Positions 996 through 30,730 of a stretch of 64,000 nucleotides of DNA are shown one piece after another. How positions within the stretch are numbered: position 1 is the stretch's first letter; the number at the start of each line of letters is the position of its first letter. Below the pieces are notes generated by a model, which ran no database searches, was not told where the DNA came from, and saw only the letters and a program-made list of their open reading frames with translations. Source of the DNA: Phycisphaerales bacterium (GTDB taxonomy: Bacteria > Planctomycetota > UBA1135 > UBA2386). A program made the translations under genes and the position numbers. Location: assembly GCA_020247305.1 (NCBI GenBank), contig JADCJE010000045.1:71251-135250 (forward strand), written 5' to 3'.

Positions 996-1916
996 ATGCA
1001 GTGCGCCTTCCTGTTCACCGGCCAGGGTTCGCAGTTCGTCGGCATGGGCAAGGACCTCGTCGAGAGGTTCCCGATCGCTCGGCAGGCCTTCGCCGAGGCG
1101 GATGCCGCGCTCGGCGAGTCGCTGTCGACGCTGTGCTTCGAGGGGCCGGAGGAGCAACTCGGCCTGACTACGAACACCCAGCCGGCGACCCTCGCGGTCG
1201 CGACGGCCGCCTTCCGCGCGCTCGGCCGCAAGCCCGACCTCGCCGCTGGCCACAGCCTGGGCGAGTATGCCGCGCACGTCGCCGCCGGCACGATCCCGTT
1301 CGCCGAGGCGATCCGGTTGGTGCGCGAACGGGCGCAGCGCATGCAGTCGGCCGTGCCGGTGGGTACCGGCGGCATGGTCGTGCTGCGCAAGATGGGCCTC
1401 GACGAGGTCAAGGCGCTGGTCGCCAAGGTCGACGCCGGCCTGTGCGAGATCGCCAACGTCAACGAGCCCGAGCAGATCGTCGTCTCGGGCGCGATCGCGG
1501 CGATGGACCAGGTCGTGGCGCTGGCGCCGCCGCGCAAGGCGCTCAAGCTCAACGTGTCGGTGCCGTTCCATTGCTCGCTGCTGCGCGCGGCCGGCGACGG
1601 CTTCGCCAAGGTCCTCGACGCCACGCCGATGCGCGATCCGGCGTTCCCGATCTGGTGCAACGTCGACGCCGCGCCGGTAGCAACGGCAGCGGCGGCGCGC
1701 AGCGCGCTGCAGCGGCAGTTCGCCGGCGCGGTGCTGTGGCAGCAGACGGTCGAAGGCATGTTCGCCGCCGGCGTGCGGCGTTTCGTCGAGTGCGGGCCGA
1801 AGCCCACGCTCGTCAACATGGTCAAGCGCATCGCCCTGGCCAAGGGCGTCGAGGGCGTCGAGACCATCGCGGCGACGACGGCCGACGAGATCGCGGCATT
1901 GGCCGCGCACGGATGA
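996..1916 (+). CDS. fabD: Malonyl-CoA:ACP transacylase
   Basis: N-terminal FLFTGQGSQ, catalytic GHSLGEY, IANVN, VSVPFH, FVECGP motifs; ATG at 996. Confidence 0.95.
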   Translation: MQCAFLFTGQGSQFVGMGKDLVERFPIARQAFAEADAALGESLSTLCFEGPEEQLGLTTNTQPATLAVATAAFRALGRKPDLAAGHSLGEYAAHVAAGTIPFAEAIRLVRERAQRMQSAVPVGTGGMVVLRKMGLDEVKALVAKVDAGLCEIANVNEPEQIVVSGAIAAMDQVVALAPPRKALKLNVSVPFHCSLLRAAGDGFAKVLDATPMRDPAFPIWCNVDAAPVATAAAARSALQRQFAGAVLWQQTVEGMFAAGVRRFVECGPKPTLVNMVKRIALAKGVEGVETIAATTADEIAALAAHG

Positions 1917-2902
1917 CGGCTGCGGTCGACAACCCGCTGCGGCAGGCGCTGTTCCCGCTCGGGTTGGCATGGTGCGGCGTCGCGGCGCTGCGCCATTTCG
2001 CCTTCGACCGCGGCCTGCTGGCGGCGCACCGGCTCGGCGCCACGGTCGTGTCGATCGGCAACCTCGCCGTCGGCGGCACCGGCAAGACGCCGGCAGTGGC
2101 CTGGTTGTGCGAGCGGGCGCGCGCGCACGGCCGCCGACCCGGCGTGCTGGCGCGCGGCTACGGCCGCGCGGCCGGCGCGGCGCTCAACGACGAGGGCGCG
2201 ATGCTGCAGCGGCGCATGCCGTGGCTGTTGCAGGAGCAGGATCCCGACCGCGTGGCCGCCGGCGGCAAGCTCGTCGGCCGCGGCGTCGACTACGTCGTGC
2301 TCGACGACGGCTTCCAGCACCGACGCCTGCGGCGCGACCTCGACATCGTCTGCCTCGACGCAGCGCGGCCGTTCGGCAACGGCATGTGCCTGCCCGCCGG
2401 CGACCTGCGCGAGGGCCGCGCCGGCCTGCGCCGCGCCGGCATGGTGTTCCTCACGCGCAGCGAGAGCCTGGCCCCGGCAGAACTCGCGGAACGCATCGCT
2501 CGCGTGCGCGACCTCGCCGGCCGCGCCATCCCGATCTTCGCGACCGCGCACGCGCCGGTCGACCTCGTCGAGCGACCGTCCGACGCCACTGCGCCGCTCG
2601 CCGCGCTCGCCGGCCGCCGCGTCGCGCTGCTGTCCGGCATCGCGCGCCCGGCGAGCTTCCGCCGCACTGTGGAGGAACTCGGGGCCGAGGTCGTCGCCGA
2701 CCTGCGCCACGCCGACCACCATCGCTTCACCGACGCCGAGCTCGCCGCCGCGGCGCGCGCTGCGCAGGACGCCGGCGCGGTCCTCGTGACGACGGAGAAA
2801 GACGACGCCCGCATGCCGTCGGTCGGCCCGGCGCGGCTGGTGCTGCGCATCGCGCTGCGGTTCCTCGACGGCGAACCGTCGCCGGCGGAGCTGCGGCTGT
2901 GA
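1913..2902 (+). CDS. lpxK: Tetraacyldisaccharide 4'-kinase
   Basis: SIGNLAVGGTGKTP P-loop, ARGYG, LDDGFQH, PAGDLRE, TTEKD motifs; ATG overlaps the fabD stop (ATGA). Confidence 0.93.
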   Translation: MTAAVDNPLRQALFPLGLAWCGVAALRHFAFDRGLLAAHRLGATVVSIGNLAVGGTGKTPAVAWLCERARAHGRRPGVLARGYGRAAGAALNDEGAMLQRRMPWLLQEQDPDRVAAGGKLVGRGVDYVVLDDGFQHRRLRRDLDIVCLDAARPFGNGMCLPAGDLREGRAGLRRAGMVFLTRSESLAPAELAERIARVRDLAGRAIPIFATAHAPVDLVERPSDATAPLAALAGRRVALLSGIARPASFRRTVEELGAEVVADLRHADHHRFTDAELAAAARAAQDAGAVLVTTEKDDARMPSVGPARLVLRIALRFLDGEPSPAELRL

Positions 2903-3834
2903 CGATCCGGCTGCGCGACCGGGTCGTCTACCTCGCTGCCCGCGTGGCGATCGGGCTCGCGGCGCGCGTACCGCAGTGGCTCGGCTACGGCCTCGCCGAC
3001 GCGCTGGGCCGGCTGTTCTTCGCGCTCGATGGGCGCCGCCGCGGCTACGCGCTGCGGTTCCTGCGCAACGCCTACCCGGAGGCGACCGACGCCGAGCGCT
3101 TGCGCATCGGCGCCCGCGCCACCGGCAACCTCTTCAAGGTGCCGCTCGACATGGCGCGGCTGACGCGCCTGTTGGCCCGCGGCGGTTCGGTGCGCGACGT
3201 CGTCGACTTCACGGCAGCCGAGGCGACCCTGGCGGCGGCGAAGCCGCCGTTCCTCGGCCTCACCGGTCACCTCGGCAACTGGGAGGTCGGCGCGGTGGCG
3301 ATGGCGCAGTCGGTCGGCCGCGCGCACGGCATCGCGCGGGTGTCGCGCAACCCGCTGCTGCAGCGCTGGATCCTCGACAACCGGCAGCGCGGCGGGCTCG
3401 TCATCCACCCGCGCCGCGGCGGCGTGCGCGACCTCGCGCGCGCCCTCGCGGCGGGGGAAGTCGGCCTGCAGGTTGTCGACCAGAACCAGCGCCTGCGCGG
3501 CGTGTTCGTGCCGTTCTTCGGCGAGGTCGCCAGTTGCGAGCGCGCCGCCGTCAGCCTCGCGCTGCGCTGCGGCTATCCGGTCGTCTTCGGCACGGCGCTG
3601 CGGATCGGCCACGGCTTTCGCTTCCGCTTCGTCATGCACGGCCCGATCCGACTCGCCGTCACCGGTGACCGCGCCGCCGACCTGCGCGCCGGCGTCCTGC
3701 GCGTGAACCAGGAAATCGAACGGCTGGTGCGGCTTGCCCCCCAGCAGTACCTGTGGATCCACGACCGCTATCGCACGCGGCCGGAGCACGATCCGGATGC
3801 CGCGGCGGAACACGACGAAGCTGACGCCGACTGA
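2899..3834 (+). CDS. Lipid A lauroyl/acyltransferase (LpxL/HtrB-like LPLAT family)
   Basis: GHLGNWE, VVDQ, VFVPFFG, PQQYLWIHDRYR motifs; GTG start overlaps the lpxK stop. Confidence 0.88.
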   Translation: MTIRLRDRVVYLAARVAIGLAARVPQWLGYGLADALGRLFFALDGRRRGYALRFLRNAYPEATDAERLRIGARATGNLFKVPLDMARLTRLLARGGSVRDVVDFTAAEATLAAAKPPFLGLTGHLGNWEVGAVAMAQSVGRAHGIARVSRNPLLQRWILDNRQRGGLVIHPRRGGVRDLARALAAGEVGLQVVDQNQRLRGVFVPFFGEVASCERAAVSLALRCGYPVVFGTALRIGHGFRFRFVMHGPIRLAVTGDRAADLRAGVLRVNQEIERLVRLAPQQYLWIHDRYRTRPEHDPDAAAEHDEADAD

Positions 3835-22244: not shown

Positions 22245-22390
22245 CAGGACGAGATTAGGAGTTGCCGACGCGACCGGCAAGACGGGGGGGGGCGCGCCAC
22301 CCGGCGACGGCGAAAAAACGGCGGCGCTCAGGGCCGTGGCAGCGCCCGGTCGATACCCGAGCGGTCCGGTTCCACCAACCTTCGACGATA

Positions 22391-25300
22391 ATGGTTCTAC
22401 GCGGGGATCTCGCCAGTGTCGACCTGTCCCAGGTCTTCCAGATGCTGGCGCTCAACAAGAAGGTTGGCCTGCTCAGCATCCAGGGCGAGCGCTTCTGGCA
22501 GGCGCTGTACTTCGAACCGCGCGGCGTGACCCTCTGCCACAACGTCCATCAGGTCGTCGATCGGCTCGTGCTGGCGATGGTGCGGACCGGCAAGCTCGCC
22601 GAGGCAGCGGTGGAGGAGATCCGCACGCATGCCGCCGACACCGAGAAGGACATCGTCGACGGCCTGCTGGCCGGCGGCTACCTCGACGCGGAGGAACTCG
22701 CCGAGCGGTACCGCGCCGAGCTGGAGGAGCAGATCTACGAGCTGTTCCTGCGCCACGACGCGAAGTTCGAGTTCCACGAGCACAAGAAGTCGCTGCCCGG
22801 CCGCGACGCCACGATCGACGAACGCCACTTCTTCAACTGCGATTCGGTGATCATGGAGGCCGCCCGCCGCATCGACGAGTGGGCTTTCATCAGCGAGCGC
22901 GTGCCGACGCAAGCCGAGGTGTTCCGCTGCTCGGTCGACGAACTGCCGGCCGGCCGCTTCAGCGAAGAGGCTGTGGCGGTGTTCCGCCTGCTCGACGGGT
23001 ATCGCAGCGTCGCCGGCGTCGTCGAGGCCTCGGGCCTCGTCCAGTTCCAGGTCTGCAAGGCGCTGAGCCAGATGATCGATGCCGGCGTCTGCGCCGCCGT
23101 GCCGCCCGAGCAGTTGCTCGCGCTCGCCGAAGAGTGCGTGCGCAGCGAGCGGTTGCGCGACGCGATCCGCCTCTACGAGCGGGCGATCGAGCAGGAGGTC
23201 GGGCTGCCGGATGCGCACGGCTATGCCGCCAGTGCCTGCCAGGCAGCCTCGGAGTTCGAGCGGGCGGTCCACCACTTCCGCTGCGAGGCCGAGCAGCGCG
23301 TCGCCGCCGGCGATGCTGCCGGCGCCGCCGCCGCGCTGTTCGAGATCCGCGCGATCGTTCCGACCGACCTCGCCGCGCGCGAGCAGCTCGTGGCGTTGAC
23401 CACCGGCGAGGACGCGACGCAGTTGCCGGGCTTCGACGTCGTGGCGGAAGGCCGCGAGCTGGTCGAGCTGCTCGGCGCCATCGGGGCCGAGGACCGCGCG
23501 CAGTCTCTGCTGGAGCGCCTCGTGCTCGCCGCGCCGCGCGCCCCCGAGCTCAAGAAGGCCATGGTCGGCGCCGCCATCAAGGCGGGGGACCTCCGTCGGG
23601 CGATCGAACTCTACGAGGGCATCGCCGCCGACTATGTCCACCTCGAGCAGGCCAACGAGGCGGTCGTCTACCTGCAGAAGATCCTGGTGCTCGACCGCGG
23701 CCGCAACGACGTCGAGGAGCGCATCGTCGAGTTGCGCGCGTTCGACCAGAGGCACCGCCGTCGCGGCGCGCTCGTCGGCACGCTGACGCTGCTGTTCCTG
23801 ATGCTGGTCGGCCTCGGCTTCAGCTACTGGTACTACGACCAGTCGGCCGCCATCTCGCTCGCTGCGATCGACGTTCGCGACGAACTGGCGCGCAAGGACT
23901 TCACCAGCGCCGAGGCGGCGTTCGTCGGCTTCATCGCCTGCCATCCGTACACCACCGCGCTCGACGGCGCGCACGCCGAGTTGCGCGTGCTCGCGGGTTT
24001 GCGCCGGCAGCACGAGGAGGAGCAGGATCGGCTCGACGAGGAACAGCGCGTGAAGCTGGCCAGGCTGCGTTCCCAGTACCAGGCGGAATGGGCGCGCCAC
24101 CGCACGCTCTTCTTCGCCGGCAAGGCCGCCGACTCCGTGCTCTCGATCGAGCGCGTCCGGCAACTGGTCGCCGAATGCGGCGACGAGAAGGATGTCGCAT
24201 GGGCGGCGACGCAGCAGGTCGACGAGACGCTGCGAAAGCTGAAGCTATACATGGCGGAGTCCGCGGCCCTGGGGGCGCAATACGCGGCCCTGCGGGAGAC
24301 CGGCGATTGGCGTGGCGCGCGCGGCATCGCGCTGCGCCTGCGGTCGGGCTTCGACAACTCCGACGCCGCGCGCGAGTGCCCGTTGCCGGTGGAGGTCGTG
24401 TCGCGGCCGCTTGGCGCGACGGTCGCCGTCGACGGCGAGATCCTGCGACGCGAGGGCGACGGGCCGGTGCAGACGCCGGCGGTGGTGTTCGCCAAGGGCG
24501 CGACGTTGCGGGTGGACGTCGCGCTCGACGGCTTCCGGTCCCGCCGCGTCGACGTCGACGCCGCCGCGAAGGAGAGCATCGAACTGACGCTGGACGTGCT
24601 GCCCGCGGCGACCATCGACTTCGAGACGCCGCCGCAGACCGGCGTCGGCATCGGCGAGGATTGGCTCGCCGTCGGCCTGCGCGGCGGTCGCATCGGCATA
24701 GCCCGCGCCGATGGCGCGGAACGTCGCGTCGTGGCGCTGCCGGGACTGCGAGCCGTCGACGCCACGCCCGTGGTCGCCGCCGGCTTCGTCTTCTTCCTGA
24801 GCAACGAGAACACCGTCGACTGCCTGCCGCTGGCCGTCGGCGGCGCGCGCCGCGCCTGGTCGCGGGAGATCGCGGGCGGCGCCGGTTCGGGTCTGGCGGT
24901 CCTCGGCGGGCGCGTCGCCGTCGTCGATCGCGCCGGGGTCCTGCGCGCGTTCGACCAGGCGACCGGCGCGCCGGCGTTCGCCGTGCCGCTGCAGGGCGCG
25001 CCGGCCGGCGCGCCGGTGCTGCACGGCCGCAACGTCCACGTCGGCCTCGCCGACGGCCGATTGTTCACCGCCAGCGCCACCGATGGCGCCATCGCCCACG
25101 TCGTGCGCGCGCCCGCCGGCCTGTCCGCCTCGCCGCTGGCATGGGAGGACCTGCTGGTCGCCGGCCTGGTCGACGGTCGCGTCGTCGCGCTCGACGCCAA
25201 GGACGGCAAGGTGCGCTGGTCGTTCGCCGCCGGCGGGGCGATCGGCGACGGCGACTTCGCCGTCTGCCAGGACAAGGTGCTCGCGCGCTCGGGCGAAGAC

Positions 25301-25585
25301 CGCATCGTCGCGCTCGACGTGCGCAGCGGCGCGGAGCTCGGCGCGATCAGCACCGGCGGCGCCGTCGGCCACATCGCCGTGACCGGCGAACGGGCCTTCG
25401 CCTCCGTCGTGCGGCCGCGCGTCGCCGGCGATGCCGGCGGCGAGGCGTTGTTGCTGATCGACGTCGGCGCGATGGCGGTCGCGTGGGAGCACCGCGGCGA
25501 AGGCGGCGGCGCCCGCGGCTGCGGTTTCGGCGGCGGCTTCGCCGCCATGTCGCAGTCTTCGGGCCAGCTGCTGCTGTTCCGCTAG
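22391..25585 (+). CDS. DUF4388 (PATAN-like) + TPR + transmembrane + PEGA-like + PQQ-type beta-propeller protein
   Basis: N-terminal LRGDLASVDLSQVFQML...GLLSI and IMEAARRIDEW (DUF4388); TPR-like helices; TM GTLTLLFLMLVGLGFSYWYY; VVSRPLGATVAVDG (PEGA-like); DGRVVALDAKDGKVRW propeller repeats. Confidence 0.82.
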   Translation: MVLRGDLASVDLSQVFQMLALNKKVGLLSIQGERFWQALYFEPRGVTLCHNVHQVVDRLVLAMVRTGKLAEAAVEEIRTHAADTEKDIVDGLLAGGYLDAEELAERYRAELEEQIYELFLRHDAKFEFHEHKKSLPGRDATIDERHFFNCDSVIMEAARRIDEWAFISERVPTQAEVFRCSVDELPAGRFSEEAVAVFRLLDGYRSVAGVVEASGLVQFQVCKALSQMIDAGVCAAVPPEQLLALAEECVRSERLRDAIRLYERAIEQEVGLPDAHGYAASACQAASEFERAVHHFRCEAEQRVAAGDAAGAAAALFEIRAIVPTDLAAREQLVALTTGEDATQLPGFDVVAEGRELVELLGAIGAEDRAQSLLERLVLAAPRAPELKKAMVGAAIKAGDLRRAIELYEGIAADYVHLEQANEAVVYLQKILVLDRGRNDVEERIVELRAFDQRHRRRGALVGTLTLLFLMLVGLGFSYWYYDQSAAISLAAIDVRDELARKDFTSAEAAFVGFIACHPYTTALDGAHAELRVLAGLRRQHEEEQDRLDEEQRVKLARLRSQYQAEWARHRTLFFAGKAADSVLSIERVRQLVAECGDEKDVAWAATQQVDETLRKLKLYMAESAALGAQYAALRETGDWRGARGIALRLRSGFDNSDAARECPLPVEVVSRPLGATVAVDGEILRREGDGPVQTPAVVFAKGATLRVDVALDGFRSRRVDVDAAAKESIELTLDVLPAATIDFETPPQTGVGIGEDWLAVGLRGGRIGIARADGAERRVVALPGLRAVDATPVVAAGFVFFLSNENTVDCLPLAVGGARRAWSREIAGGAGSGLAVLGGRVAVVDRAGVLRAFDQATGAPAFAVPLQGAPAGAPVLHGRNVHVGLADGRLFTASATDGAIAHVVRAPAGLSASPLAWEDLLVAGLVDGRVVALDAKDGKVRWSFAAGGAIGDGDFAVCQDKVLARSGEDRIVALDVRSGAELGAISTGGAVGHIAVTGERAFASVVRPRVAGDAGGEALLLIDVGAMAVAWEHRGEGGGARGCGFGGGFAAMSQSSGQLLLFR

Positions 25586-25598
25586 CAAGGACGATGCA

Positions 25599-26693
25599 AT
25601 GAACCTGCTGCAACGCATGAAGGTCTGGCGCGAGCTCAAGCAGCTCGAGCAGCGCGTCCGCGAGGAACCGGCGCCGACCACGTTCGTGGACCTCGGCCAG
25701 GTCCACATCAGCCTCGACATGCACGACAAGGCGGAGCGCATCGCCGAGGACGGCTTGTCGTTGTTCCCGAAGTCGATCGAGCTGCGGCAGCTGCTGGACA
25801 CGGCGCGCCGCGGGTTGCGGCGCAAGCGCATGGACGAACTGCGCGCGCAGTTGCTGCGCGCGCCGGACGCGGCGTCGTTCGCGGAGCTGACCGGACTCCA
25901 GGTCGAGCTCGGCGACCGCGCGGGCATGCAGCGGACCTGCCAGGAGTGGGGGGTGCGCTTCCCGCAGGATCCGGGCAGCTGGCGCGTCCTGGCGCGGGCG
26001 CACCTGGTCAACTACTACCGCGATCTCGCCGCCAGCGAGGGCTCGTCGGCCGTGCGCTGCCTGGAGTTGGCGATCGAACGCGAGCCCGACGAGGCGCCGA
26101 CCCGGCTGATGCTGGCCGAGGTGCTCTACCGCATCGGCGCGGCGCGCCGCGCCGAGGGACAGATCCGCGCCGTCTTGCAGGCCGCGCCGATGGACTCGGC
26201 TGCCGCGGCGCTGCTCGCGCACGTCACCGCGCTCGCCGACGACGGCGACGACGTCGATGCGCTGCTCGCCGACGTGGAGGAGCACGGCGCCCTGCGGCAT
26301 CCGACGCCGGCGACGGCCGCGCCGCAGGTGAACGCGGAGTCGTTCGTCGGCGTCCGCGACGCCCTCGGCGACGTCACCCAGATCGAGGGCGTGCGCAAGG
26401 CGACCTTCATCCGCGGCACGAAGGCGATGGTCCGCGGCGCCGTCCGCGACGGCCGCGATCCCTTCCTGCGCACCGCTCGCGTCGTCGGCAAGTCGATGCA
26501 GCGGTTCGCGCGGCGGTTGGACATCGGGCAGGCCAACAAGTCGGTGGTCGAGGGCGGCTTCGGCGCGGTCTGCGTGTGCGCGTACGGCGACGCGATGGCG
26601 GCCGCGCAGTGCGACGCCGGCGCCGACTTCGAGCGCGTCCTCTTGGCGTTGCAGGAAGTCGTCGCGGGCGCGCTGGCCGCGCCGGAGAGCTGA
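25599..26693 (+). CDS. TPR protein with a C-terminal roadblock/LC7-like domain
   Basis: TPR-like repeats (FVDLGQVH..., TRLMLAEVLYRIG); C-terminal about 110 aa ALGDVTQIEGVRKATFI...VVEGGFGAVCVC have a roadblock-like pattern. Confidence 0.7.
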   Translation: MNLLQRMKVWRELKQLEQRVREEPAPTTFVDLGQVHISLDMHDKAERIAEDGLSLFPKSIELRQLLDTARRGLRRKRMDELRAQLLRAPDAASFAELTGLQVELGDRAGMQRTCQEWGVRFPQDPGSWRVLARAHLVNYYRDLAASEGSSAVRCLELAIEREPDEAPTRLMLAEVLYRIGAARRAEGQIRAVLQAAPMDSAAAALLAHVTALADDGDDVDALLADVEEHGALRHPTPATAAPQVNAESFVGVRDALGDVTQIEGVRKATFIRGTKAMVRGAVRDGRDPFLRTARVVGKSMQRFARRLDIGQANKSVVEGGFGAVCVCAYGDAMAAAQCDAGADFERVLLALQEVVAGALAAPES

Positions 26694-27055: not shown

Positions 27056-27178
27056 AGCAAACCTCCTGGCGGTCAACGCGGCTCAAGTCGCGCCGCGGCC
27101 GCCGTCGATAGTCCGTGCGTCGCGCCGCGGCCAGGATGCCGCGCCAGCGACGACAAACCGTCGGGACGCGAGACATCC

Positions 27179-28102
27179 ATGGTTCAGATCAACTTCGCGC
27201 TGAAAGAAGTCAATTGCAAGGTCGTCTACTACGGCCCGGGAATGAGTGGCAAGACCACCAATCTCGAGATCGTCCACCAGAAGGCTCCTGAGGAGAACAA
27301 GGGCGACCTGACGTCGATCTCGACCGACGGCGACCGCACGCTGTTCTTCGACTTCATGCCGCTCGACCTCGGCAACGTCGCCGGCATGCGCACGAAGTTC
27401 CAGCTCTACACGGTGCCCGGCCAGGTCTACTACAACTCGACGCGCAAGCTGGTGCTGCAGGGCGTCGACGGCGTCATCTTCGTCGCGGACTCGGATCCCG
27501 AGAAGATGGACGAGAACCTGGAGAGCTACGCGAACCTCATCGAGAACCTCGCCGAGTACGGCAAGGACGTCCGCGAGCTGCCGCACGTCATCCAGTACAA
27601 CAAGCGCGACCTGCCGACGGCGCTGTCGGTCAGCGAGATGGACCGCCAACTCAACAAGTTCGGCGTGCCGACGTTCGAGGCCGTGGCTTACACCGGCGAA
27701 GGCGTCTTCCCGACGCTGAAGACGCTGGCCGCGATGGTGCTCGAGAGCATCGAGAAGATCGACGGCCGCAACCCGCGCCGCGCCGCTCCGGCCGGCAAGC
27801 CGGCGGCAGAAGCGGAGCCGGCGCCCGTTGCCGCGCCCGCTGCGCCCGCGAAGCCCCGTCCGGCGGGTCCCGCCCGGCCCGCTCCGGCGCGCCGCCCGGC
27901 AGCCCCCGTCGGCGCCACCGCCACCGCCGCCCGGCCGCGGCCGGCGGCCCGCCCCGCGCCGCGACCCGCTCCGGCGCCCGTCGCCGCCGCGCCGGCGAAG
28001 CCGCAACCGCGCACGTTCGGCGTCGGCGTCGTCGTCACCCTGTCCGTCCTGCTGCTGATCGCAGCGGCCGGCGTCGCCTACCTCGTCCTCGGCCAACAGT
28101 GA
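27179..28102 (+). CDS. mglA: MglA-family small GTPase with Pro/Ala linker and C-terminal transmembrane helix
   Basis: KVVYYGPGMSGKTTNL, DRTLFFDF, LYTVPGQVYY, GVDGVIFVADS, QYNKRDL, GEGVF; the tail FGVGVVVTLSVLLLIAAAGVAYLVL is hydrophobic. Confidence 0.93.
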   Translation: MVQINFALKEVNCKVVYYGPGMSGKTTNLEIVHQKAPEENKGDLTSISTDGDRTLFFDFMPLDLGNVAGMRTKFQLYTVPGQVYYNSTRKLVLQGVDGVIFVADSDPEKMDENLESYANLIENLAEYGKDVRELPHVIQYNKRDLPTALSVSEMDRQLNKFGVPTFEAVAYTGEGVFPTLKTLAAMVLESIEKIDGRNPRRAAPAGKPAAEAEPAPVAAPAAPAKPRPAGPARPAPARRPAAPVGATATAARPRPAARPAPRPAPAPVAAAPAKPQPRTFGVGVVVTLSVLLLIAAAGVAYLVLGQQ

Positions 28103-28116
28103 GCGGAGTCCGTCCC

Positions 28117-28635
28117 ATGCCCGATTCCAAGCGCATCTCGCAGAACGAACGCCTCCGCCAGGACCGGTTGACCTTCTACAAGGAAGACGTCGACCAGATC
28201 GACAAGTTGCTGGCCGAGTTCCTCCGTCTGTCCGGCGCGAAGTGCGCGCTGCTGATCGACAAGGAGGGCCACCTCGTGACCAAGTGCGGCGAACTCCGCA
28301 CGATCGACATCGACACCATCTCGGCGCTCGTCGCCGGCTCCTTCGCCGCGACCAAGGAGATGGCCCGCCTGCTCGGCGAGGACGAGTTCACCGCGATGTT
28401 CCACCAGGGCGAGCGCGACAACATCCAGCTGTCGCTCGTCGGCGATCGCACGCTGCTGACCATCCTGTTCGACGACCGCACCACGGTCGGCATGGTGCGT
28501 CTGTACGCGGGCGAGACGGCGAAGAAGCTCGCCGAGATCTACACCAAGGTCGTGCAACGCCCCGAAGGCGACAGCGGCCTCGGTGACAAGTACGGCAGCG
28601 AGGCGTCGAAGACGCTCGACAAGCTGTTCGACTGA
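28117..28635 (+). CDS. mglB: MglB roadblock GTPase-activating protein
   Basis: LLIDKEGHLV, ISALVAGSFAATKEMARLLGEDEF...FHQGE, FDDRTTVGMVRL, C-terminal LDKLFD; GGAG upstream of the ATG. Confidence 0.92.
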   Translation: MPDSKRISQNERLRQDRLTFYKEDVDQIDKLLAEFLRLSGAKCALLIDKEGHLVTKCGELRTIDIDTISALVAGSFAATKEMARLLGEDEFTAMFHQGERDNIQLSLVGDRTLLTILFDDRTTVGMVRLYAGETAKKLAEIYTKVVQRPEGDSGLGDKYGSEASKTLDKLFD

Positions 28636-28673
28636 CGTCAGCGGCGGTCGCCGCGACGGCGACCGCCCGTCAG
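28632..28673. terminator. Hairpin between convergent mglB and metG
   Basis: GGCGGTCGCCG/CGGCGACCGCC 11-bp stem, flanked by CTGACG...CGTCAG, which contain both stop codons. Confidence 0.6.
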
Positions 28674-30730
28674 TGCAGGCGCTGGCCCGGCTTTGCGCCG
28701 CTGTCCGGCGACAGCAGGTAGACCTCGCCGTCGGTGCCGGCGGCGATCACCATGCCCTCGCTCATGCCGAACTTCATCTTGCGCGGCGCGAGGTTGGCGA
28801 CCATCACGACCAGCCGGCCGACGAGCTTGTCCGGCTCGTAGGCGCCCTTGATGCCGGCGAAGACGTTGCGCGTCACGCCGCCGCCGAGCGAAAGCGTCAG
28901 CCGCAGCAGCTTCTTCGCCTCCGGGACCGCCTCGGCGGCGAGCACCTCGGCGATGCGCAGGTCGACCTTCTGGAAGTCGTCGATCGTGATCGCGCCGGCG
29001 AGCGGCTCCTTGGCGAGCGCGGTGTCGCCGCCGGCGGGGGTGGCAGGCGCCGGGGTGGGCGCCTGGGCGGTCGACGGGGTCGGCGTGGCGGCGGGAGCGG
29101 ACGGTTCGGGCGTGAACATGGCTTGTGCCTTCTCGGCCTCGACGCGGGCCATCATGTGTTCGAACTTCGCGACGCGGACGCCGACGAGCGGCGTGGCGAC
29201 GGCGGCCCAGGCGTCGCACGGGCTGCCGAGCAGCGCGCCCGCCTTGGCGGCGAGCCCCGGCAGCACGGGCTGGAGGTAGACGGCGATCTGGCGGAACAGG
29301 TTGAGCACGACCGTGCAGACGTCCTGCAGTTCGGCCGCGCGCGCCGGGTCCTTCTTGATGGTCCACGGCGCCTTCTTCTCGACGTACTCGTTGGCCGCGT
29401 CGGCGAGCGTCATCACGAGCCGCATCGCCTCGCGGAAGTCGCACGCCTCGTACGCGGCGGCGATCGCTTCGCTGGCGGCGGCGGCGCGCTCGAACAGGCC
29501 GCCGTCGTCCGGGTAGCGCGCCGACAGGCCGGTCGTCTCGACGAAGCGCGCCGAGCGGCTGGCGAGGTTGACCACGCGGCCGACGAGGTCGCTGTTGACC
29601 TTGCCGACGAACTCGTCGACCTGGAAGTCGAGGTCGTCGATCTTGCCGCTCAGCTTGCTGGCGTAGTAGTAGCGCAGCCACTCGGGGTCGAGGAACTGCA
29701 GGTAGCGCGCGGCAGTGACGAAGGTGCCCTTCGACTTGGACATCTTCTCGCCGTTGACGCGCAGGAAGCCGTGGATCTGCACGCGGCGTGGCAGCTGGTA
29801 ACCGCCGACGTGCAGCAGCGCCGGCCAGAACAGCGTGTGGAAGTAGGTGATGTCCTTGCCGAGGAAGTGCACGATCTCGCACCGCGGATCGCGCCACCAC
29901 GCGTCGAGCGACCGGCCGGTGCGCTCGCACCATTCCATCGTCGCGGCGATGTAGCCGACCGGCGCGTCGAACCAGACGTACCAGTACTGGCCCTTCGCGT
30001 CGGGGATCTCGAAGCCGAAGTAGGGGGCCGGCCGCGACACGTCCCAGTCCTGCAGCGGCTTGTCGAGGAAGTGCCCGGCGAGGTAGTTGGCGACCTCGGG
30101 CTGCAGTGCGCCGGACGTCTGCGTCCACTGGGTCAGGAAGCCCTGCAGCGGCTCCAGCCGCACGAACAACTGCGTGCTCGGCCGCAGTTCGGGCGCAGCG
30201 CCGGAGTGCGCGCTGCGCGGATTCTTGAGCTCGGTCGCCGGGTAGGTGGCGCCGCAGGCCTCGCAACTGTCGCCGTACTGGTCCGCGGCGCCGCAGCGCG
30301 GGCACGTGCCGACGACGAAGCGGTCGGCGAGGAAGGTCTTCTGCACCGGGTCGTACAGTCGTTCGACCGAGCGCTCGACGACCATGCCGCGCTCGCGCAG
30401 CCGCTGCCAGATGCCGGTGCAGGCCGCGAGGTTGGCCGGGCTGTTGGTCGAGCCGTAGTGGTCGAACGACATGCCGAAGGCGGCGAAGTCGCGCTGGTGC
30501 TGCACCGCCATGTCGGCGACCAAAGCCTCCGGCGAGCGGCCTTCCTTCTGCGCGCGGATCATGATCGCAGCGCCGTGCGTGTCATCGGCGCACAGGTAGG
30601 CGACGTCGTGGCCGCGCAGGCGCTGGAAGCGCGCGAAGATGTCGGTCTGGATGTACTCGACGAGGTGGCCGAGGTGGATCGGGCCGTTGGCGTACGGCAG
30701 CGCGCTGGTGACCAGGATCTGGCGCTTCAT
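28670..30730 (-). CDS. metG: Methionine--tRNA ligase with C-terminal tRNA-binding domain
   Basis: [18 protein letters not shown], two CxxC pairs, C-terminal [12 protein letters not shown]...ANLAPRKM. Confidence 0.98.

Follow-up and report, generated by a model that had tools for sequence, protein, structure and literature searches.

MglA is the textbook polarity GTPase of bacteria, and the model of its action describes a soluble protein, which leaves one cell pole and binds to the other. In the survey of Wuichet and Sogaard-Andersen (PMC4316618) Group-1 MglA proteins are defined by the TVPGQ motif and by an arginine finger that adjoins the G2 threonine. Sequences longer than 240 amino acids were removed in that survey (449 of 488 MglA-clade sequences passed and 39 did not), and the passages of it used here mention neither Planctomycetes nor a membrane tail on MglA (PMC4316618). 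Due to this 240-residue cut-off the form described below fell outside of it, and a full-text literature search, with subscription journals and supplements outside its coverage, gave no description of an anchored MglA. Such a form is encoded in the stretch of 64,000 nucleotides analysed here (contig JADCJE010000045.1 of a Phycisphaerales bacterium, hereafter the window). Its product combines an MglA G domain with a long cationic linker and a C-terminal hydrophobic helix, and on wholly computational grounds it appears to be a real and conserved membrane-anchored variant of the known polarity GTPase, which belongs to a Roadblock-rich gene cassette.

The N-terminal part of the protein can be compared with solved structures directly. 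Residues 3–197 of Myxococcus xanthus MglA (PDB 5ymx) aligned without gaps to residues 3–197 of the window protein (E-value 1.6e-73), and Thermus thermophilus MglA (3t12) matched the same domain with an E-value of 1.1e-66. The P-loop GPGMSGKT occupies residues 19–26 and fits the pattern GxxxxGK[ST]; D52-R53-T54 provides the intrinsic arginine finger R53 beside the G2 threonine T54; the G3 motif is T78-V79-P80-G81-Q82, that is TVPGQ instead of DxxGQ, and the G4 motif is N141-K142-R143-D144. The alignment of MglA from 26 genomes contains 103 invariant columns, every one of them inside residues 1–188. G19, P20, G21, S23, G24, K25, T26, the dipeptide R53-T54, the whole of T78-V79-P80-G81-Q82 and N141, K142, R143 and D144 are all invariant there, and M22 lies outside the invariant and nearly invariant columns. 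Pfam matches of the protein are limited to Arf, Gtr1_RagA, Ras and Roc. Judged by its sequence, this is a complete Group-1 MglA G domain. The size of the whole protein (307 amino acids, 297–494 in orthologues) exceeds the range of 150–240 amino acids set for single-domain members, and because of its linker and helix it is filed as a variant of Group-1 MglA and not as a typical member.

Only one other MglA-like match, with 44% identity, was found in the window's own assembly, which is 92.6% complete. In this case the MglA-like G domain is joined to a histidine kinase of the HisKA/HATPase_c type in one protein (positions 1432..3309 of locus L002 on contig C162, 625 amino acids). Since the sole other match is a kinase fusion, no Group-1 MglA besides the anchored protein was found in this genome. 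In each of four sampled genomes from the window's family at least two MglA-like matches were registered, and the same is true for many genomes in other families. Two annotations attached to homologues were considered and dropped. The label “signal recognition particle receptor subunit beta”, which many homologues carry in JGI records, is accompanied by no SRPRB match in Pfam, and the anchor considered here is C-terminal, not N-terminal; the Pfam entry PF28211, listed for homologue P0075, was not reproduced in the Pfam scan.

The segment which follows the G domain is of a quite different composition. Residues 196–281 (86 amino acids) include approximately 31 alanines, 24 prolines and 12 arginines, the K+R and D+E counts being 15 and 2, and in the AlphaFold2 model built on a 26-row alignment residues from about 198 to 281 have no secondary structure, with a predicted local distance difference test score (pLDDT) mostly below 51. 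Then comes the hydrophobic stretch VGVVVTLSVLLLIAAAGVAYLVL (residues 281–304), after which only GQQ precedes the stop codon. Its best 19-residue Kyte–Doolittle mean, 2.62, exceeds the classical threshold (about 1.6), and the sole 19-residue segment of the protein reaching 1.6 falls inside residues 276–307. In the same model a helix was found at residues 282–306, where pLDDT of 10-residue blocks is 83, 95 and 85. Two basic residues, K274 and R278, are present in residues 267–281 ahead of the helix and none beyond it. An N-terminal signal peptide is absent: the protein begins with strand 1 and the P-loop of its G domain, which is aligned from residue 3. Insertion by the C-terminus with the N-terminus inside is predicted from the single terminal helix, the missing signal peptide and the uneven distribution of charges, and the G domain is placed in the cytoplasm because basic residues precede the helix (a prediction by the positive-inside rule). 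The data therefore support the prediction of a tail-anchored inner-membrane protein with a cytoplasmic G domain.

The three-part design had been proposed by the initial annotation, which marked positions 27755..28102, corresponding to residues 193–307 of MglA. It described a complete G domain with the DRT arginine, the VPGQ glutamine and NKRD, and each of these motifs was located along with the alignment to 5ymx; its Pro/Ala/Arg linker of about 85 residues agrees in length with the one delimited here, is rich in Ala, Pro and Arg and is structureless in the model; its hydrophobic helix of roughly 25 residues ending with GQQ and a stop agrees with hydropathy and with the modelled helix. The tail-anchored arrangement suggested there is also favoured by sequence features, since the C-terminal helix is the lone hydrophobic segment and basic residues lie on its N-terminal side.

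The question of whether homologues preserve the tail was addressed at the level of both proteins and genomes. A search of a collection of 5.8 billion proteins gave 7995 matches among 8000 candidates scored. The best 120 matches are 231–355 amino acids long and, where named, come from metagenome-assembled genomes of Planctomycetota; a hydrophobic segment no further than 25 residues from the C-terminus was registered in 113 of them. Among the seven lacking a qualifying tail there is one variant helix (1.52), three entries labelled as partial and three short entries, from a source lacking contig data, that end within the linker. From genomic DNA, the 29 best loci (L003–L031) provided 25 complete open reading frames (ORFs) and four running off the contig end, and 54 further loci, picked one per family label where possible, provided 53 complete ones (L119–L171). 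The helix was present in all 25 ORFs of the first set and in 47 of the 53 in the second, where six lack it. In total, a membrane helix was seen at the C-terminus of 72 of the 78 complete orthologues, which are distributed over many family labels. The check proposed by the initial annotation, a search of homologues for a conserved transmembrane tail, thus supported its reading in both samples. One genome per species was additionally scanned with the family alignment, which gave 80 loci, all from metagenome-assembled or “uncultured” records. The helix was found in each of the 32 complete ORFs of L032–L066, L071, L073 and L093 (30 from Planctomycetota and two from a “bacterium”), and these ORFs were kept out of the previous count since they partly overlap with the earlier genomes. 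The anchored form is the usual MglA among the sampled Planctomycetota genomes having the gene and no oddity of a single gene.

Tail statistics were obtained for 71 helix-bearing orthologues without masked letters. Their linkers are 77–265 residues long (median 124) with a positive net charge in 68 cases (median +11), and the linker sequence is unalignable between families. The uncharged span of the helix is 19–31 residues (median 23), and the stretch past it has a median of 4 and a maximum of 74 residues. The mean number of K+R in 15 residues is 3.4 before the helix versus 0.66 after it; it is higher before the helix in 63 orthologues, equal in six and lower in two. Based on these sequences one can read the design as a cytoplasmic G domain under strong constraint, which is connected to a C-terminal membrane element by a spacer whose length, disorder and positive charge are what selection maintains. 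In the close family the helix follows the consensus ..K/R-G-G-x-G-L-V-V-G-L-T-V-x-L-L-V-A-A-A-G-V-A-Y-F-F-L-G-N... Some orthologues extend further: 35–76 residues follow the helix in L023, L026, L027, L029, L121, L146 and L171 (and in L054/L122, which run off the contig), and in L023, L026, L027 and L029 this part contains a conserved ..LQKFY(D/N)DKL.. on the predicted periplasmic side.

Before the tail is discussed in functional terms, the reality of the reading frame itself has to be considered. In DNA of more than 70% G+C spurious long open frames are common, many overlapping ORFs are present in the window, and the linker is of low complexity; all this would suit an artefact, in which a normal 195-residue mglA became fused to unrelated high-GC sequence through an overlooked stop codon, a frameshift or a false join in the assembly. 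The initial annotation had itself asked for such a check, and independent assemblies were available for it, since a search of sequencing runs showed that many studies of lakes and other fresh waters have metagenomes containing this stretch. Positions 27100–28700 were compared with contigs of four runs, two of them independent DNA runs and two from RNA libraries. In run X5, a lake-water metagenome from another study, one contig of 3596 bases spans this entire region, and with it the entire gene, with 12 single-letter differences and no gaps. Eleven of these differences fall within the ORF (the linker has three and the helix one), and all 11 are synonymous, which is the pattern of a translated and selected frame in a related strain. 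A contig of 612 bases from run X3 covers positions 27775–28386, i.e. most of the linker, the helix and the beginning of mglB, with one difference and no gaps, and no insertions or deletions were listed in any of the four runs over the region compared. Neither a missed stop nor a frameshift after the G domain was seen. Codon-position G+C of the ORF also follows the pattern of a real gene, with G+C at third codon positions (GC3) of 0.91 in DNA of about 70% G+C. The artefact is further contradicted by the start of downstream mglB, which overlaps the mglA stop codon, and by recurrence of the three-part design in the 72 orthologues from other genomes and the 113 database proteins counted above. Given this evidence we regard it as very improbable.

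The tail could also serve for sorting of an exported protein, as a signal of the PEP-CTERM, sortase or a similar type. Such signals are likewise C-terminal hydrophobic stretches, and Planctomycetota possess exosortase systems. The absence of a signal peptide speaks against this explanation, as does the absence of both PEP and LPXTG motifs from the sequence and of any match to sorting-signal models in the NCBIfam scan at E-values up to 0.01. The basic residues are located ahead of the helix instead of behind it, and the GTP on which a GTPase depends is cytoplasmic, so that export of this protein seems hardly conceivable. We consider it quite likely instead that the gene codes for a Group-1 MglA with a cytoplasmic G domain, a cationic leash of about 85 residues and one C-terminal membrane-spanning helix, by which it is tail-anchored in the cytoplasmic membrane. 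Several observations weigh against this assignment. The membrane segment was assigned from hydropathy, from the bias in charge and from a structure model, and in that model the G domain came out poorly (mean pLDDT 59.8 with the 26-row alignment). Contigs from RNA libraries cover positions 27130–27696 and approximately 28033–28382, leave the linker uncovered and as contigs cannot prove transcription; nothing follows from their gap over this GC-rich part. The module is not universal in the phylum: a match with an E-value of 1e-30 or lower was found in 173 of 301 sampled genomes, which is a floor, and some families had no match at all, for example f7 (none of 15 genomes). Six of the 78 orthologues have no helix, from which it follows that a spanning helix is not indispensable. 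Finally, in the close family the helix sequence (..LTVxLLVAAAGVAY..) is kept far better than the linker, and such strong conservation, unexplained by a passive anchor, hints at a specific helix–helix contact.

The last point leads to another explanation, according to which the helix is a regulated or temporary tether, with the G domain freed by cleavage, either of the linker or inside the membrane, or mainly binds the membrane helix of a partner, for instance that of the propeller protein encoded in the same cassette. Besides the preserved helix with its small-residue AAAG stretch, this possibility is favoured by the long, exposed and disordered linker and by the very presence of a single-pass membrane protein in the gene cluster. 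However, across the phylum it is hydrophobicity of the helix and not its sequence that is kept, and in some lineages an amphipathic tail substitutes for it; both facts agree more readily with attachment to the membrane in general than with binding to one particular partner. The conserved cassette also contains no protease gene. A regulated tether or a dedicated helix partner is, therefore, rather unlikely, and a stable tail anchor is the reading retained below.

Coordinates of the anchored mglA, its parts and neighbouring genes are collected in Table 1 together with the MglA genes of other phyla which have an amphipathic tail.

Table 1. Features of the mglA cassette in the window and amphipathic-tail MglA loci of other phyla
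Feature	Position	Strand	Remarks
Anchored mglA	27179..28102	+	Stop-free ORF of 307 amino acids: G domain, Ala/Pro/Arg linker and C-terminal helix
MglA G domain, residues 1–195	27179..27763	+	All Group-1 catalytic motifs
Cationic Ala/Pro/Arg linker, residues 196–280	27764..28018	+	Assigned by composition, charge and absence of predicted structure
C-terminal hydrophobic helix, residues 281–304	28019..28090	+	Followed by GQQ (28091–28099) and stop (28100–28102)
DUF4388-TPR-beta-propeller protein	22262..25585	+	Longest ORF 1107 amino acids; Met codon 44 may be the true start
TPR-Roadblock fusion, 364 amino acids	25599..26693	+	N-terminal TPR, C-terminal Roadblock/LC7-like
Roadblock/LC7 protein, 119 amino acids	26696..27055	+	Pfam Robl_LC7 5.3e-8
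MglB	28099..28635	+	Start GTG 28099 (overlaps mglA stop) or ATG 28117; Robl_LC7 1e-14
Amphipathic-tail MglA	L067, L069, L070, L072, L074–L077, L079–L081, L083–L086, L089, L092, L102, L106, L111		ORFs start at about 2501

Five genes are arranged head to tail on the plus strand in the order PATAN-TPR-propeller, TPR-Roadblock, Roadblock, mglA and mglB. The product of the last one matches M. xanthus MglB (6izw_B) with an E-value of 4.8e-28 over residues 23–177, including the C-terminal region. It is this match to a solved structure that identifies it as MglB, while the NCBIfam MglB model scores it at 103 bits, under its cut-off of 200. Downstream mglB was found in all 25 loci of L003–L031 with downstream DNA available. 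The gene directly upstream of mglA encodes the small Roadblock protein, whose nearest solved relatives are CvnB5 (3leq, 2.1e-5) and 7f8m (2.9e-5); by sequence it is a second MglB-type paralogue, distinct from MglB itself. Its counterpart was detected by tblastn in the same place in 22 of the 29 loci.

The TPR gene, present upstream of mglA in all 29 loci, has TPR_19 (1.5e-7) and TPR_14 (4.6e-6) matches in its product, and Pfam registered nothing in the C-terminal 138 amino acids (approximately 26271..26690). Comparison by hhalign of 35 such C-terminal domains with 31 Roadblock neighbours showed that the last 115 residues or so are Roadblock-like (97.7% probability, E-value 2.3e-12, 111 columns). 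A complex model of this Roadblock-like end with the 119-residue Roadblock protein received a score of 0.91, the best of three controls having 0.00; runs agreed in at least 98% of contacts, and pLDDT of the partner is at least 90. The mark used for complex scores is reached by 116 of 157 solved complexes and by 2 of 215 mismatched pairs. Roadblock dimers are common among solved structures, so that success of the model may reflect this likeness and is no proof of binding; as far as the model can be trusted, the two proteins probably form a heterodimer.

The first gene of the cassette encodes a protein with DUF4388 (5.1e-18, residues 47–208), known in the literature as the PATAN domain, and TPR (TPR_19, weak) in its N-terminal half and with a PQQ_2/BamB-like beta-propeller (PQQ_2 3e-20, residues 864–1044) in its C-terminal half. 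Its ORF has a GC3 of 0.92. One hydrophobic segment separates the halves at residues 501–523, with a 19-residue Kyte–Doolittle mean of 2.17 and RHRRR ahead of it. This suggests a membrane-spanning, receptor-like product, in which the propeller would be outside the membrane and DUF4388 with TPR inside. By tblastn, its C-terminal part was found upstream of the TPR gene in 9 of 35 loci (L032–L066).

Outside Planctomycetota the same genome scan revealed another type of tail. Twenty of 42 non-planctomycete loci, belonging to Ignavibacteriota, Zixiibacteriota, some Fibrobacterota and other bacteria, encode long-tailed MglA of 290–560 amino acids without a hydrophobic helix, and their low-complexity tail ends with ..KKRGFFKRLFGIK or its variants. 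The membrane-targeting sequence of Escherichia coli MinD is given as KGFLKRLFGG (PMC5471200), and MinD is described as binding the membrane through a C-terminal amphipathic helix in dependence on ATP-driven dimerisation (PMC8155659). By their sequence the ..KKRGFFKRLFGIK-type tails look like MinD-type membrane-targeting sequences. In the remaining loci, seven Fibrobacter genes (L078, L082, L087, L094, L095, L101 and L110) end with ..DDEIELRPYVPKKK, four have other long tails, two run off contigs, and nine from Gemmatimonadota (L088, L090, L098, L099, L104, L105 and L107–L109) encode a short MglA of 192–209 amino acids. The Fibrobacter and Fibrobacteraceae proteins are 313–331 amino acids long and their long tail carries a conserved ..DDEIELRPY(V/K)PK..; within 2.5 kb of these seven mglA genes neither an MglB nor a Roadblock gene was detected.

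The arrangement of neighbours differs accordingly. In the amphipathic-tail cassettes of other phyla mglB is downstream in 20 of 20 cases and a small Roadblock gene is directly upstream in 13 of 20, while for the short mglA of Gemmatimonadota mglB is upstream in six of nine, which is the classical mglBA order, reverse to that of the tethered cassettes. This contrast in gene order shows that the tethered form goes with its own cassette. Amphipathic ends are not foreign to Planctomycetota either, as the six helix-less orthologues keep long tails that end with basic amphipathic motifs such as ..KSKGFVGFLKGLFGK, ..KKKGFLGRLFRIFKK, ..PLFRKFKKFLDEK.. and ..KKKPIFKKFEKKFKK. Helix-less planctomycete loci L149, L154, L160, L161, L165, L169 and L118 come from genomes G098, G020, G007, G140, G176, G047 and G008, respectively. 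The basic amphipathic ends ..FKKFKKFLD.. and ..GFLGRLFRIFKK are found in this set, and two helix-less loci belong to single-contig genomes of 9.3–9.5 Mb with up to seven MglA-like matches.

Both tail types were also seen among the best 150 representatives from a library of 1.84 billion proteins: 51 have a C-terminal helix, 10 a helix with a longer tail, and at least 24 end in amphipathic motifs recognised by a simple pattern, with several more visible in the remainder. A quick maximum-likelihood tree of 141 G domains (LG+G4, branch support by the SH-like approximate likelihood ratio test, SH-aLRT, only) requires at least five changes among the helix, amphipathic-tail and short states. It was rooted on the long-branched kinase-fused paralogue, and its sample was collected with the planctomycete profile and contains no Myxococcus or Thermus sequence. 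Non-planctomycete sequences fall inside planctomycete diversity on this tree, subject to its unreliable root. With at least five changes of state the type of anchor does not follow a single clean split and was exchanged repeatedly, and the tree was not used to order gains and losses.

Taken together these features allow a mechanism to be proposed. The helix would span the membrane with only three residues beyond it, and the G domain would cycle between GTP and GDP as in characterised MglA, which is expected by homology because R53, Q82 and the P-loop are intact. MglB encoded by the adjacent gene would serve, by homology again, as the GTPase-activating protein. The anchor would confine the switch to the plane of the membrane, where effectors are met within reach of the leash; by general polymer reasoning, not by computation, 85 residues may let the G domain stand off the membrane by anything between a few nanometres and a few tens of nanometres. 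Positive charge of the leash may hold the G domain near anionic lipids. The initial annotation argued that such a protein could not relocate by cytoplasmic diffusion. If the protein is anchored, this holds for the route through the cytoplasm, but lateral diffusion in the membrane still permits movement from pole to pole, so that relocation, either by this way or by local turnover, would be slowed yet possible. The putative Roadblock heterodimer may provide a scaffold or further regulation, for example as an exchange factor, and the PATAN-TPR-beta-propeller protein is a candidate membrane partner or input.

A wider scheme may be imagined, though we regard it as doubtful. Membrane-tethered MglA would represent a widespread and so far undescribed class of small-GTPase modules, with a helix in Planctomycetota and a MinD-like tail in Ignavibacteriota, Zixiibacteriota and others, coupled to a receptor: the propeller protein would sense the periplasm, the Roadblock heterodimer would act on the GTPase in the way Ragulator acts on Rag GTPases, by loading it or by serving as its scaffold, and MglB would switch it off, so that a membrane site is marked for polar growth, budding or pili in Planctomycetota.

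An MglA fixed in the membrane cannot follow the model of a soluble oscillator and contradicts that picture; it is a natural case for learning where in the polarity circuit exchange through the cytoplasm is required. Planctomycetota are unusual in their cell biology, with budding and with no FtsZ in many members, and the conserved cassette supplies concrete candidate partners. The two tail types would mean that prokaryotes arrived at eukaryote-like tethering of a Ras-type switch via a C-terminal extension at least twice, by a spanning helix and by an amphipathic one, which bears on the discussion of membrane-associated small GTPases before eukaryotes. In this discussion archaeal Rab-like proteins are described as devoid of the C-terminal extension to which lipid is attached in eukaryotic Rabs (PMC10933270), and Asgard Arf proteins as able to associate with membranes (PMC11914678).

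Compared with the Group-1 MglA/MglB systems of M. xanthus and T. thermophilus (5ymx, 6h17, 3t12), the window protein shares the G domain from end to end, the arginine finger, TVPGQ, NKRD and an adjacent mglB. The characterised proteins are soluble and have about 195 amino acids, whereas here 112 residues are added as leash and membrane helix; mglB stands downstream instead of upstream, and two more genes with the Roadblock fold precede mglA. The conservon CvnA-D of Streptomyces, in which a Group-2 MglA takes part in a membrane-associated heterocomplex (PMC4316618), also encodes an MglA-family GTPase together with a Roadblock protein and a membrane protein, and this common set suggests signalling at the membrane. 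There, however, a separate sensor kinase provides the membrane link and the GTPase is unanchored, and Group 2 has no arginine finger, in contrast to Group 1 considered here.

Bacterial tail-anchored proteins are an established class with examples in E. coli, as described by Peschke et al. (PMC6794478). The window protein has their single helix at the extreme C-terminus, no signal peptide and a functional domain in the predicted cytoplasmic part. To our knowledge, no small GTPase is among the described examples. With tails of the MinD/FtsA type it shares the principle of a nucleotide-dependent switch whose C-terminus attaches it to the membrane from inside, and near-copies of the MinD-type motif are found in the sister MglA cassettes of Ignavibacteriota and Zixiibacteriota and in six planctomycete genomes. 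The difference is that a full spanning helix should bind irreversibly, while the amphipathic helix of MinD binds reversibly. Anchored small GTPases of eukaryotes include prenylated Ras, Rho and Rab, mitochondrial Miro with its C-terminal membrane helix, and SR-beta with an N-terminal one. The window protein has no lipid-modification motif and belongs to the MglA family, so that its resemblance to them is functional only: in both cases a G domain of the Ras superfamily would be brought to the membrane by a flexible C-terminal extension, and signalling would be confined to the membrane.

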